From contig CAWDEW010000009.1 in assembly GCA_963801445.1 (NCBI GenBank), positions 836,438 through 900,437 on the forward strand: DNA of 64,000 nt. Reading direction: 5' to 3'. Positions 25,974 through 37,989 of this stretch are shown here, piece by piece. The translations under genes were made by a program, and so were the position numbers. The stretch comes from an uncultured Chloroflexia bacterium. GTDB lineage: Bacteria > Chloroflexota > Limnocylindria > Limnocylindrales > CSP1-4. The notes beneath the pieces were generated by a model. It made no database searches. It was not told the DNA's origin and saw only the letters and a program-made list of their open reading frames with translations. The number at the start of each line of letters is the position of its first letter. The first letter of the stretch is position 1.

Positions 25974-27371
25974 TCAGGAGAGCCGGGCGAAGTCCGCGGT
26001 CCCGCGCCGCAGGAAGCGGCCGTGGCCGGCGGGCCCGGTCCACGCGCCGTTGCGCACCACCACGGTGCCCCGGCTCATCACGACGTCGGAGCCGCCCTGG
26101 ACCTGCCGACCCTCGAAGATCGAGTAGTCCACGTCCATGTGATGCGTCGTCGCGCTGATCGTGTGGCGCCGGTTGGGGTCGTACACGAGGATGTCCGCGT
26201 CCGATCCGGCCGCGATGGCGCCCTTCTTCGGGTACATCCCGAACATCTTCGCCGGGGCCGTGGACATGACCTCGACCCAGCGCTCGCGCGAGAACTGCCC
26301 GCCGACCACGCCGCCGTCGTGGAGCAGGTCGACCCGGTCCTCGACCGCGGGCAGGCCGTTCGGGATCTTGCGGAAGTCGCCCCGCCCCAGCTCCTTCTGG
26401 CCATGGAAGTCGAACGGACAGTGGTCGGTGGAGACCAGCTGGAGGTCGTCCTTGCGGAGCCCGGTCCACAGGGCGGCCTGGTGGGACTTCTCCCGGAGCG
26501 GCGGCGAGCAGACGAACTTGGCCCCCTCGAAGCCATTGCCCATGTCGTCGAGCGAGAGGAAGAGGTACTGCGGGCATGTCTCGGCGAAGGCCATCGCGCC
26601 GCGGCCGCGGGCGGCGTGGACCACCTCGAGCGCGTCGCGGGCCGAGAGGTGGACGATGTAGATGGGCACCCCGGCCGCCTCGGCCAGGCGGATCACCCGG
26701 TTGGTGGCCTCGCCCTCGAGGATCGGGTAGCGGGCCAGGCCGTGGCCGATCGGGTCCGTCGTTCCGGCCGCGACCATGTCCGCGGCGATGACGTCGATCA
26801 CCGGGCCGTTCTCGGCGTGGGCCATGATCAGCCCGCCGTTCCTGCGAGTCTGCTGGAGCGCCCGGAAGATGTGGTCGTCGGGGCTCAGGAAGACGCCCGG
26901 GTAGGCGGTGAAGAGCTTGAAGTCCGGGATGCCCTCGGCGACGAGCTGGTCCATCTCCAGCAGCGACGCGTCGGTGACGTCCGACATGATCATGTGGAAG
27001 CCGTAGTCGATCAGGGCGTTGCCCTCGGCCTTGGCCATCCAGATCTCGAGTCCCTCGCGCAGGGACTTGCCCTTCGACTGGACCGCGAAGTCCACGATGG
27101 TGGTCGTCCCGCCGAAGGCTGCCGCCCTCGTCCCCGTCTCGAAGGTGTCCTTGGCGAACGTGCCTCCGAAGGGCAGCTCCATGTGCGTGTGGGCGTCGAT
27201 CCCGCCCGGGACCACGTACTTGCCTGCCGCGTCGATCGTCTCGTCGGCCGCGACCCCGCTCGCAGCCAGGTGCGCCCCGACGAGGGCGATGGTCTCGCCG
27301 TCCACGAGGACATCGGCGGGCGTCGAGCCGTCGGCCGTCACGACCGTCCCGTTGGCGATGAGCGTGCGCAT
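25974..27371 (-). CDS. Dihydropyrimidinase / D-hydantoinase (cyclic amidohydrolase)
   Basis: It matches hydantoinases in its N-terminus (MRTLIANGTVVTADG) and metal-binding motifs (GGIDAHTHM, DFKLF, STDHCPF). It forms the C-terminal third of the composite 1148-aa track ORF. Confidence 0.9.
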   Translation of the reverse strand: MRTLIANGTVVTADGSTPADVLVDGETIALVGAHLAASGVAADETIDAAGKYVVPGGIDAHTHMELPFGGTFAKDTFETGTRAAAFGGTTTIVDFAVQSKGKSLREGLEIWMAKAEGNALIDYGFHMIMSDVTDASLLEMDQLVAEGIPDFKLFTAYPGVFLSPDDHIFRALQQTRRNGGLIMAHAENGPVIDVIAADMVAAGTTDPIGHGLARYPILEGEATNRVIRLAEAAGVPIYIVHLSARDALEVVHAARGRGAMAFAETCPQYLFLSLDDMGNGFEGAKFVCSPPLREKSHQAALWTGLRKDDLQLVSTDHCPFDFHGQKELGRGDFRKIPNGLPAVEDRVDLLHDGGVVGGQFSRERWVEVMSTAPAKMFGMYPKKGAIAAGSDADILVYDPNRRHTISATTHHMDVDYSIFEGRQVQGGSDVVMSRGTVVVRNGAWTGPAGHGRFLRRGTADFARLS

Positions 27372-27382
27372 GCGCTTCCTCC

Positions 27383-28390
27383 TCAGGCCTTCCCGGCCGG
27401 CACGTCCCGCAGGGCCGGGATGATCTCCCGCCCGTAGATCTCGAGCTGCTCCTCTTCGTCGCCGTTCATGAGGTAGAGGTTGAACTGGTCGACCCCGGCG
27501 TCGGCCAGGACCCGCAGCTTCGCGACGTGGGCCGCCACGTCGCCCACGAGGCCGAACCGGTCGACGATGTCGTCCGTCACGAACTCGGCGTTCGAGGAGC
27601 CGACCTCGGCGTGGTGCAGGTAGTCGTAGCCCTGCCGGCTGGCGATGTAGTGGGTGAGCGACTCGGGGAGCTCGCCCTGGTACTTGCTGACGAGGTCGAC
27701 GACATGGTTCCCGACCAGCGCCGGGAACCAGCGGATCCGGTCCCGGCCGTCCGCGATGTCGCCGACGTGCGCCGGGGCGGCGGACATGATCTTCACGGAT
27801 GAGGGGTCCCGTCCGGCCTCGCCGGCCGAGGCCCTGACCTGCCCGACGAACCAGCGGATCAGGTCCGGATCGGCGATCTGGAGCATCGCCCCGTCGGCGA
27901 CCCGGCCGGTCAGCTTGAGGGCCACGGGTCCGTACCCCGCGATCCAGACCGGGAGCCGGTGGTCCGCCGCCCAGGTCAGCTGGAGCGTCGAACCCTCGTA
28001 CTCGATCGGCCGACCCTCGGCGAGGGCCCGGATGACGTGGACGGCCTCCTCGAGAGCAGCCATCGTCGTGGGCGCCTTGCCCAGCACGCGCCGGGCCGAG
28101 TCGCCCCGCCCGATGCCCAGGTCCATCCGTCCGCCCGAGAGCTCCTGGAGCACGGCCAGGGCGGACGCGGTGACCGACGGCTCCCTGGTGGCCGGGTTCG
28201 TGACGCACGTCCCGAAGCGCATCCGCTTCGTCGCCTGGGCCATCAGGGTCAGGAGCGGGTAGGGCTCCCGCCACAGGACGTGCGAGTCGAACAGCCATCC
28301 GTGGGTGAAGCCGGCGGCCTCCGCCTGGCGGGTGAGCGCGATCGTGCGCTCGATCGAGAAGCCGGGCCGGATCGTGAACCCGAACTGCAT
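27383..28390 (-). CDS. LLM-class flavin-dependent oxidoreductase (luciferase-like monooxygenase family; possibly F420-dependent)
   Basis: The 335-aa product has a luciferase-like TIM-barrel pattern (MQFGFTIRPG ... GRMDLGIGRGD ... VWIAGYGP). Confidence 0.8.
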   Translation of the reverse strand: MQFGFTIRPGFSIERTIALTRQAEAAGFTHGWLFDSHVLWREPYPLLTLMAQATKRMRFGTCVTNPATREPSVTASALAVLQELSGGRMDLGIGRGDSARRVLGKAPTTMAALEEAVHVIRALAEGRPIEYEGSTLQLTWAADHRLPVWIAGYGPVALKLTGRVADGAMLQIADPDLIRWFVGQVRASAGEAGRDPSSVKIMSAAPAHVGDIADGRDRIRWFPALVGNHVVDLVSKYQGELPESLTHYIASRQGYDYLHHAEVGSSNAEFVTDDIVDRFGLVGDVAAHVAKLRVLADAGVDQFNLYLMNGDEEEQLEIYGREIIPALRDVPAGKA

Positions 28391-36752: not shown

Positions 36753-36873
36753 CCACGGACGGCCGCGTCGTCCCGCACCAGGAGGAGGTAGCCGCTATCG
36801 AAGAGGCAACGATCGAGACCGCGCGGTACTGACGTCGGTTCGGCGTCGAACCAGAGGAGGAGGAGAGGGTCTC

Positions 36874-37989
36874 ATGAAGATTGCTCGGAAGGGCATCGCG
36901 CTCGCCGCCGTGGCAGCGCTCGCCGTCGTGGCCTGCTCATCGGGCGGGACACCTGCGCCCGCCAGCTCGGCTCCGCTCACGAAGGTGCGCTTCGTGCTGC
37001 AGTGGGTTCCGCAGGCACAGTTCGCCGGCTACTTCGCGGCCGCCGACCAGGGCTACTTCAAGGACGCCGGCCTGGACGTCCAGATCGTCCCCGGCGGACC
37101 GGACATCAACCCGATGCAGGTCGTCGCCTCGAACGGGGCGGAGCTCGGCACCACCTGGGTGCCCAAGATGCTCGCGTCACGCGAGGGCGGCACCGACCTC
37201 GTCGACATCGGACAGATCTTCCAGCGCTCCGGGACGCTCGAGATCTCGTTCAAGAACAAGAACATCAACTCGATCGCCGACCTCAAGGGCAAGAAGGTGG
37301 GCACCTGGCTCGGCGGCAACGAGCCCGAGCTCTACGCCGACCTGACCAAGAACGACATCGACCCCAAGAACCCGGCTGACGTGACGATCGTCCAGCAGCC
37401 GTTCGACATGTCCCAGATGCTCACGAGCCAGACCGACGCCGCCGAGGCCATGATCTACAACGAGTACGCGCAGGTCCTCGAGGCGACGGACCCGGCCAGC
37501 GGCAAGCTCTATTCGCCGTCCGACATCAACGTGATCGACTTCAACAAGGACGGCACGGCGATGCTCCAGGACATGATCTTCGCCAGCTCGAAGTGGCTGG
37601 GCACGGGCACCAACTCGGCCACCGCGGAGAAGTTCCTGGAGGCCTCCTTCAAGGGCTGGATCTACTGCCGTGACCATGCCGACTCGTGCGTGCAGTCCGT
37701 CCTCAAGGCGGGCTCCAAGCTCGGCGCCAGCCACCAGACCTGGATGATGAACGAGATCAACGCCCTGATCTGGCCGTCGCCGAACGGGATCGGCACGCTG
37801 GACCCGGCTGCCTGGAAGCAGACCGCCGACATCGCCGTCAAGTACGGGGTCCTCAAGGCCGCCCCGTCGGCTGACGCGTTCCGGACCGACCTGGCCACCC
37901 AGGCGCTCGCTGCGCTCGGGTCGTCGGTCGATACGAAGGGTGCCAGCTTCACGAAGACGTCCGTCACCCTGCAGCCCGGCGGTAATTGA
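36874..37989 (+). CDS. ABC transporter substrate-binding lipoprotein (NMT1/THI5-like, NitT/TauT family)
   Basis: It starts with a strong RBS ggaggaggagaggg and a lipobox (LAVVACSSGG). The binding-protein fold is periplasmic. Confidence 0.85.
   Translation: MKIARKGIALAAVAALAVVACSSGGTPAPASSAPLTKVRFVLQWVPQAQFAGYFAAADQGYFKDAGLDVQIVPGGPDINPMQVVASNGAELGTTWVPKMLASREGGTDLVDIGQIFQRSGTLEISFKNKNINSIADLKGKKVGTWLGGNEPELYADLTKNDIDPKNPADVTIVQQPFDMSQMLTSQTDAAEAMIYNEYAQVLEATDPASGKLYSPSDINVIDFNKDGTAMLQDMIFASSKWLGTGTNSATAEKFLEASFKGWIYCRDHADSCVQSVLKAGSKLGASHQTWMMNEINALIWPSPNGIGTLDPAAWKQTADIAVKYGVLKAAPSADAFRTDLATQALAALGSSVDTKGASFTKTSVTLQPGGN

Follow-up and report, generated by a model that had tools for sequence, protein, structure and literature searches.

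A candidate F420H2-dependent uracil/thymine reductase in a pyrimidine-catabolism gene cluster of an uncultured Chloroflexota bacterium

Which enzyme would reduce the pyrimidine ring in a gene cluster that encodes the later enzymes of reductive uracil/thymine degradation and lacks dihydropyrimidine dehydrogenase? The question is raised by a 64 kb stretch of contig CAWDEW010000009.1 from an uncultured Chloroflexia bacterium (the window throughout this text; 72% G+C), a Chloroflexota of the Limnocylindria type and not an actinomycete. In this window, a gene for an oxidoreductase of the luciferase-like monooxygenase (LLM) family (27383-28390, minus strand; Pfam Bac_luciferase PF00296, 214.6 bits) lies between the genes for an N-carbamoyl amidohydrolase (28415-29266, minus strand; Pfam CN_hydrolase, 224 bits) and a dihydropyrimidinase/D-hydantoinase (25974-27371, minus strand). 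A first-pass annotation had suggested that the LLM takes the place of the missing dehydrogenase. That suggestion is supported by the F420-class, Mer-like character of the protein, by its linkage to dihydropyrimidinase genes in three phyla and by the F420 operon to which its proteobacterial counterparts belong. Judging from genomic context, we propose with a probability of roughly 0.6 that the LLM acts as an F420H2-dependent uracil/thymine reductase. The reduction of the ring by such an enzyme as the first step is the new claim; the rest of the pathway is known.

Genes in the window were called from the G+C content of third codon positions (GC3) combined with Pfam and NCBIfam scans. The three genes form one minus-strand operon in the order amidase, LLM, dihydropyrimidinase, as previously described, and the intergenic gaps, given earlier as 12-25 nt, are 24 nt between the amidase stop and the LLM ATG and 11 nt between the LLM stop and the dihydropyrimidinase ATG, the latter gene being preceded by a GGAGGA ribosome-binding site. 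The GTG at 29314 had been taken as the start of the amidase; the ATG at 29266, which has GGAGGAG in front of it, is most likely the true one.

The absence of dihydropyrimidine dehydrogenase holds for the 64 kb, which is the extent to which it is shown. Searches with E. coli PreT and PreA by tblastn found no homologue in the window, and Pfam scans of 39 of its larger GC3-supported open reading frames (ORFs) found no DHO_dh domain. The LLM itself is not homologous to PreT/PreA/PydA and has none of the parts that define a dihydropyrimidine dehydrogenase, namely a DHO_dh domain binding flavin mononucleotide (FMN), a 4Fe-4S ferredoxin domain and a subunit for NAD(P)H and flavin adenine dinucleotide (FAD). 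Its relation to PreT/PreA is thus one of functional analogy, not of family membership.

Family, fold and cofactor class of the LLM

The LLM protein matched TIGR03842 with 439.5 bits against a cut-off of 295.45, and the alignment covered protein residues 2-327 and profile positions 1-329 of 329. TIGR03842 is an F420-class LLM family that NCBIfam (release 20) names only by number. The best 11 NCBIfam matches were all to F420-type LLM or Mer models, and FMN-type models scored at most 46 bits. Of the 12 nearest solved sequences, Mer ranked first (E = 2e-33), and the top 11 were all F420 enzymes. The AlphaFold model (pLDDT 87.4, pTM 0.88) showed the luciferase-like (beta/alpha)8 barrel already indicated by the Pfam match, and in Foldseek searches with this model the eight top fold matches were Mer chains, with TM-scores of 0.78-0.83.

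These results point indirectly to F420 rather than FMN as the cofactor, because the 11 nearest solved sequences are F420 enzymes and because the proteobacterial orthologue closes an operon of cof and fno genes. The first-pass annotation had asked which of the two cofactors is used and had regarded a grouping with alkanesulfonate-type monooxygenases as fatal to its proposal; since the protein is of the F420 class and Mer-like, that objection falls away. F420-dependent LLMs have been divided into a group of F420H2-using reductases, which includes Mer, and a group of dehydrogenases (Mascotti et al., PMC6279831). By its sequence affinities, the LLM of the window would fall on the F420H2-consuming reductase side of this split.

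The protein shares with Mer the common fold (TM about 0.8), a full-length identity of about 27-28% that includes the VTNP and GxGD loops, and an aspartate, D97, which is invariant in TIGR03842 LLMs and corresponds to Mer Asp96, the contact to the pyrimidine ring of the pterin. Nevertheless, it is not a Mer: it scored well below the cut-offs of the Mer models (TIGR03555, 135.1 versus 348.7 bits; NF002619, 140.9 versus 276), and it sits among genes of pyrimidine catabolism instead of C1 metabolism. The catalytic glutamate of Mer (Glu6 in jMer), whose E6Q variant retains 0.4% of kcat (PMC11094777), is absent as well. Its position is occupied by Thr6 in the window LLM, by Thr in 120 of 120 Chloroflexota homologues, by Cys or Thr in Proteobacteria and by Val in the TIGR03842 proteins of Streptomyces. 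This variation by phylum also rules out a catalytic Cys/Ser at that position of the kind found in dihydropyrimidine and dihydroorotate dehydrogenases.

The TIGR03842 family has invariant motifs of its own, WF..VGNHV.D and YDY..H. The polar sets N228-H229-x-x-D232 and Y255-D256-Y257-x-x-H260 within them are invariant and lie on and near the lid region. Members are about 45-51% identical across phyla and at least 69% identical inside phyla, and the search for the family returned at least about 8,000 clusters at 90% identity.

Another luciferase-like TIM barrel, RutA of the Rut pathway, also acts directly on uracil and thymine. It is a monooxygenase that cleaves the ring, depends on O2 and FMNH2, and works with the reductase RutF and with partners from RutB to RutG. 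Unlike RutA, the window LLM has strong matches to F420-type models only, and the enzymes encoded around it are those of the reductive route.

Gene neighbourhoods of the LLM in three phyla

A scan of one genome per species yielded 80 related loci whose LLM was 69-87% identical to that of the window. All are labelled as Chloroflexota of the Limnocylindria type except three, of which two are labelled only 'bacterium' and one Gammaproteobacteria. The amidase gene lay upstream of the LLM on the same strand in 70 of the 71 loci with enough flanking sequence, and the dihydropyrimidinase gene lay downstream on the same strand in 67 of 73. This amidase-LLM-dihydropyrimidinase arrangement, present in about 70 of the 80 genomes, is far beyond chance. 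Also near the LLM were genes for the aminotransferase (54 of the 80 relatives), methylmalonate-semialdehyde dehydrogenase (MMSDH; 29), an NMT1 binding protein (14) and an NCS1 nucleobase permease (9). The genomes are related to one another, so their synteny alone could be inherited.

In about half of the relatives, inserted genes separate the LLM gene from that of the dihydropyrimidinase. The insertions encode MOSC, ApbE, PlsY-like, histidine kinase and MttB proteins, and the set is heterogeneous and uninformative. The MOSC-domain gene was found at this place in three relatives (L025:12150-12959, L027:11008-11814 and L029:11008-11820). The MOSC family includes reductases of N-hydroxylated base analogues.

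The linkage extends to Streptomyces, where dihydropyrimidinase and LLM genes are adjacent in three of four loci (S. rimosus, S. sp. BHT-5-2 and S. lydicus). The LLM of these three is about 50% identical to that of the window, and a few kb upstream an amidase gene is paired with an aminotransferase gene.

Nine proteobacterial lineages carry an LLM that is about 46-48% identical to that of the window: Leisingera, Paracoccus alcaliphilus, P. jiaweipingae, Cohaesibacter, Pseudovibrio, Pukyongiella, Marinobacterium and two marine alphaproteobacterial lineages, one of which is represented by a cluster whose 651 members are spread over more than 240 contigs. In each of them the LLM is the last gene of an F420-biosynthesis operon that ends in fno-LLM; the operon reads cofG-cofH-cofD-cofC-cofE-fno-LLM in eight of the nine and cofD-cofE-fno-LLM in an abundant marine alphaproteobacterium. 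A dihydropyrimidinase gene lies within 10-12 kb in seven of the nine lineages, adjoining the cof-fno-LLM operon or co-directional with it. These seven also have an M20 carbamoylase nearby (six of seven), an NCS1 permease or an NMT1-type ABC (ATP-binding cassette) importer homologous to that of the window, and often an omega-aminotransferase. In Cohaesibacter, Marinobacterium and Pseudovibrio, the cassette has dihydropyrimidinase, carbamoylase and transporter genes nearby but no aminotransferase gene. By gene order, the LLM thus appears linked to the early steps of the pathway (transporter, dihydropyrimidinase, carbamoylase) and not to the aminotransferase.

The carbamoylase is of the nitrilase type in Chloroflexota and Streptomyces and of the M20 type in Proteobacteria, while the LLM stays constant; what is conserved is a pathway and not a single block of genes.

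Gene clusters with the canonical reductase provide a reference for these arrangements. In Mycetohabitans, Deinococcus and Azospirillum, preT-preA stands beside hydA, in the slot that the LLM holds elsewhere, and the Deinococcus preTA cluster has the same NMT1-like ABC system. Leisingera and Marinobacterium encode RutR-like regulators next to the cassette (TIGR03613, 198-215 bits), a regulator scoring 203 bits to the same model lies inside the Azospirillum preT-preA-hydA cluster, and TetR_C_3 regulators accompany the cassette in Pseudovibrio and P. jiaweipingae. The family matches of these regulators point to pyrimidines as the substrates.

Other hydA neighbourhoods differ. The otherwise complete Thalassospira cluster has no local reductase, and among hydA clusters on plasmids some have no local reductase and some are true hydantoin clusters. 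The lack of a neighbouring dehydrogenase is consequently weak evidence when taken alone. Neither of the hydantoin clusters compared (Aminobacter and Sulfitobacter) has an omega-aminotransferase, and that of Sulfitobacter has a racemase-family gene.

Several further genes accompany the proteobacterial cassettes. On the Leisingera plasmid, pntAB (L082:3254-6271) is co-directional with the genes for the aminotransferase, a Zn-hydrolase and HydA, and divergent from cofGHDCE-fno-LLM, which suggests co-transcription with the pathway genes and a dedicated supply of NADPH. Genes of tripartite ATP-independent periplasmic (TRAP) transporters (DctPQM) lie downstream of cof-fno-LLM in Pukyongiella and P. 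jiaweipingae (L183:11299-15194 and L186:12952-15922). On marine alphaproteobacterial contigs with P0152, a cluster with Tara Oceans members, LLM and aminotransferase genes are followed in the same direction by Ldh_2 (malate/L-lactate dehydrogenase family 2) and cupin genes (L184:12421-13416 and L185), which could encode further steps of the pathway.

Proposed pathway and competing explanations

The best explanation of the cluster, from the families and order of its genes, is reductive uracil/thymine catabolism in which the first step would be carried out by an enzyme other than the iron-sulfur (Fe-S) flavoprotein dihydropyrimidine dehydrogenase. The dihydropyrimidinase, an enzyme expected in a reductive pyrimidine (Pyd) cluster, exceeds the cut-off of TIGR02033 (571.4 versus 393.25 bits) and scored 500 bits to solved D-hydantoinases/dihydropyrimidinases. 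The amidase passed no curated model (aguB, 263 bits against a cut-off of 410). Among solved proteins it was closest to N-carbamoylputrescine amidohydrolase (210 bits) and to animal beta-ureidopropionases (171-175 bits), with D-carbamoylases at about 90 bits, and it is 55% identical to the amidase of the Thalassospira aminotransferase-MMSDH-hydA cluster. On this basis it is proposed to be a beta-ureidopropionase, which would convert N-carbamoyl-beta-alanine to beta-alanine, CO2 and NH3.

On the plus strand, the window encodes a class-III (omega) aminotransferase (32715-34049; Aminotran_3, 292 bits) that passed the unnamed model NF004718 (532 versus 472 bits). Its nearest solved structure is taurine:2-oxoglutarate aminotransferase (332 bits), and its proposed role is that of a beta-alanine/beta-aminoisobutyrate aminotransferase.

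The aminotransferase gene is followed on the same strand by an importer of the NitT/TauT type. The first-pass annotation placed the aminotransferase and the importer correctly on the strand opposite to the operon, but counted four importer genes where there are three ORFs. The first is an ABC permease (34090-35031, start at 34090 or 34198 uncertain), identified by its BPD_transp_1 match (72 bits) and GC3 profile. The second (35028-36752) is a single ORF of 574 amino acids that holds both the ATPase (ABC_tran, residues 52-192) and the second permease (BPD_transp_1, residues 387-561), with an arginine-rich stretch of about 55 residues connecting the two and no in-frame stop. It is either a genuine fusion, as suggested by a continuous match to the frame in the relative L025, or an assembly artefact in which a stop codon was lost or the frame was shifted. 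The third is an NMT1/THI5-like substrate-binding protein (36874-37989, start at 36874 or 36985 uncertain; NMT1, 129 bits). Its solved relatives include the pyrimidine-binding proteins ThiY and THI5, and homologues with 33-36% identity are encoded beside hydA in LLM clusters (L087 and L090) and in the Deinococcus preTA cluster (L097).

In the proposed pathway, a pyrimidine would enter through the NMT1-type ABC system. The LLM would bind F420H2 and transfer a hydride to C6 of the ring, with a proton going to C5, to give 5,6-dihydrouracil or dihydrothymine. The protein assigned to the dihydropyrimidinase family would then open the ring, the nitrilase-type amidase is predicted to remove the carbamoyl group to leave beta-alanine or beta-aminoisobutyrate, and the class-III aminotransferase would yield (methyl)malonate semialdehyde. 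F420H2 would be regenerated by Fno from NADPH in Proteobacteria, inside the operon, and by functions encoded elsewhere in the genome in the organism of the window. There is a chemical precedent for the first reaction in the LLM-type picrate reductase, which passes a hydride from F420H2 to an aromatic ring (PMC8498797).

The scheme shares with the PreT/PreA (PydA) pathway its dihydropyrimidinase, carbamoylase, omega-aminotransferase and MMSDH, its NMT1-like ABC or NCS1 transporter and its RutR-like regulators. It departs from that pathway in the slot next to hydA, which in the window is held by an unrelated TIM-barrel F420 enzyme without Fe-S clusters, FAD or FMN domains, and in that Proteobacteria encode Fno and the whole cofactor pathway alongside the LLM. 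Because a constant core of hydA, carbamoylase and transporter genes is combined either with preTA or with LLM, fno and F420-synthesis genes, the gene contents indicate that LLM and Fno are a non-orthologous replacement of PreT/PreA. A wider generalization, for which we consider the odds about even, is that TIGR03842 is a class of Fe-S-free, single-subunit, F420H2-dependent dihydropyrimidine dehydrogenases that form with Fno a relay from NADPH through F420 to pyrimidine, and that in marine and soil Proteobacteria the whole F420 operon mainly serves the LLM and is induced by pyrimidines through a RutR-like repressor.

Several observations weigh against a role of the LLM as uracil/thymine reductase. 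The whole case is one of genomic context. No conserved residue of the protein is identifiable as a proton donor, the position of Mer Glu6 differing by branch. Neither the window nor the 80 Chloroflexota loci yielded an F420-biosynthesis or fno gene, so a supply of F420 in these organisms is assumed. In P. alcaliphilus and Pukyongiella there is no dihydropyrimidinase gene near the LLM (in Pukyongiella, none within 10 kb of the cassette). In S. venezuelae the TIGR03842 gene (L179:9001-9999) stands alone, with no dihydropyrimidinase, amidase or aminotransferase gene within 9 kb on either side; it lies downstream of cydABCD, although the genes around it (LplA-like, gamma-glutamyltranspeptidase, inositol phosphatase) correspond to those of the S. 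lydicus locus, which does have the three missing genes.

The lineage also has a second candidate pyrimidine reductase, which adds to these points. In five of the 80 relatives (L001, L007, L009, L024 and L028) the LLM is accompanied by MMSDH, NCS1 and a PreA-like DHO_dh protein, and in these loci every step of the pathway already has a candidate enzyme. The PreA-like protein is about 375 amino acids long, and its gene (L001:4124-5251) lies between those of the aminotransferase and the amidase. The C-terminal 4Fe-4S domain is missing, and no PreT partner accompanies the protein. It scored 312 bits to PRK08318, below the cut-off of 335, over profile positions 1-329 of 422. Such a protein is also encoded at L118:10001-11128 and L155:10001-11119. 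Metagenomes commonly contain PreA-like genes with 85-91% identity to the L001 gene on contigs in which no LLM was detected, and there they are linked to pyrimidine genes, their neighbours being either a Bmp-type nucleoside ABC transporter and cytidine deaminase or dihydropyrimidinase and NCS1. The protein may be a stand-alone variant of dihydropyrimidine dehydrogenase, and the genome of the window may carry such a gene outside the 64 kb. Where both are present, the LLM and the PreA-like protein may be redundant, may differ in substrate preference, or the LLM may act on something else.

The last of these possibilities leads to an alternative in which the LLM reduces another imported N-heterocycle that feeds the same dihydropyrimidinase, such as a substituted pyrimidine, an unsaturated hydantoin precursor or a cyclic ureide, and uracil and thymine are left to another enzyme, for example the PreA-like one. 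The five loci with both proteins would fit this, as would the cassettes that adjoin only a transporter (ABC in P. alcaliphilus, TRAP in Pukyongiella). So would the closest published idea, namely that an F420 LLM of Chloroflexota may take over from YgfK in the reductive breakdown of urate (PMC12507026). That proposal resembles ours in that an F420 LLM stands in for an Fe-S flavoprotein and a nucleobase is reductively dearomatized before an amidohydrolase acts. It differs in its substrate, a purine, and in the presence of SsnA, and the two LLMs are likened here by role. Locally, the urate pathway was rejected: in tblastn searches of the window and the LLM loci with E. coli queries, SsnA, YgfK, YgeW/X/Y, YgfM and XdhD had no match, and only HyuA, of the dihydropyrimidinase family, did. 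RutR-like regulators beside the cassettes also speak against another heterocycle, as does a downstream gene set that is that of the beta-alanine route (beta-ureidopropionase-like amidase, omega-aminotransferase and MMSDH), and we regard this alternative as unlikely.

A somewhat smaller chance is given to a reduction of the ring by PreT/PreA, or by the Fe-S-less PreA-like protein, encoded elsewhere in the genome, with the LLM as an accessory or unrelated enzyme that is nearby by inheritance. The limit of the negative searches to 64 kb, the frequency of PreA-like genes on contigs where no LLM was found, the Thalassospira cluster and the solitary LLM of S. venezuelae are all in its favour. However, inheritance does not account for linkage in three phyla with differing gene orders and carbamoylase types, nor for a full F420 operon with a single LLM client inside the pyrimidine clusters of at least seven proteobacterial lineages.

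A terminal role in the pathway, with the LLM as an F420H2-dependent malonate/methylmalonate semialdehyde reductase comparable to RutE/YdfG, is quite improbable. The characterized F420 LLMs Adf, FGD and FGD2 do work on alcohol/carbonyl pairs, and the window has no MMSDH gene beside the aminotransferase. Yet the LLM is Mer-like, not Adf/FGD-like; MMSDH occurs alongside it in 29 of the 80 relatives; the cassettes of Cohaesibacter, Marinobacterium and Pseudovibrio lie by genes of the early steps, with no aminotransferase nearby; and in Streptomyces the LLM shares an operon with the dihydropyrimidinase and not with the aminotransferase.

The first-pass annotation had offered as its own alternative a D-hydantoinase/D-carbamoylase route from 5-substituted hydantoins to D-amino acids, with the LLM incidental; although the TIGR02033 family also holds industrial D-hydantoinases, this route is highly improbable given an amidase that reaches only 26-28% identity with the D-carbamoylases from the hydantoin clusters of Aminobacter and Sulfitobacter, the omega-aminotransferase in the window, MMSDH in the relatives and the failure to find a racemase gene in the ORFs that were scanned within the cluster or next to it.

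Returning to the LLM as an F420H2-dependent uracil/thymine reductase, a full-text literature search found no report of an F420-dependent pyrimidine reductase, although an earlier remark on the cof-fno-LLM operon may exist. According to a 2021 review of F420, not one F420-dependent enzyme from Proteobacteria or Chloroflexi had yet been investigated, the role of the cofactor there was an unanswered question, and just trace amounts of F420 were known from Paracoccus and Oligotropha.

If the proposed role is correct, it could account for F420 synthesis in many non-methanogenic bacteria, Proteobacteria and Chloroflexota among them. The trace amounts in Paracoccus and Oligotropha would fit a pyrimidine-inducible biosynthesis operon and would be explained by the wider generalization above. 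A large, strongly conserved family named only by number would gain a function, and a textbook pathway a new first enzyme, in which direct hydride transfer from a deazaflavin replaces a multi-cluster Fe-S/FAD/FMN electron wire. At present, automated reconstruction would wrongly credit these Chloroflexota, Streptomyces and marine alphaproteobacteria, abundant organisms among them, with only a partial pathway of pyrimidine degradation. The LLM proteins are small and F420 turnover can be followed by absorbance at 420 nm, which makes the test an easy one.

Remaining genes of the region

A scan of the region for promoters and terminators gave nothing above shuffled expectation. The two divergent operons are parted by two plus-strand ORFs (29327-32451) that the first-pass annotation did not mention. 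One (29327/29609-31651, 680-774 amino acids) encodes a protein in which the HEYGH zinc-protease motif occurs once and which matches M6 only weakly; the other (31690-32451, 253 amino acids) has no family match. Neither has a counterpart in any of the 80 related loci, and the pair therefore looks like a lineage-specific insertion, which it probably is.

The uracil phosphoribosyltransferase gene upp, reported earlier about 7 kb downstream, is real and lies 6.9 kb away (44894-45829, minus strand). Its ORF is 311 amino acids long and the UPRTase domain takes up only residues 106-307, so that the true start is probably internal. A link to the cluster is subject to the reservation that upp occurs within 10 kb of the LLM in just 12 of the 80 relatives.

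Just beyond the dihydropyrimidinase, the plus strand encodes an Amidohydro_3 protein of 604 amino acids, which matched no NCBIfam model, and an Lgt-like protein (22235-24936). Of the 80 relatives, 22 have a homologue of the former close to the LLM and 51 a homologue of the latter.

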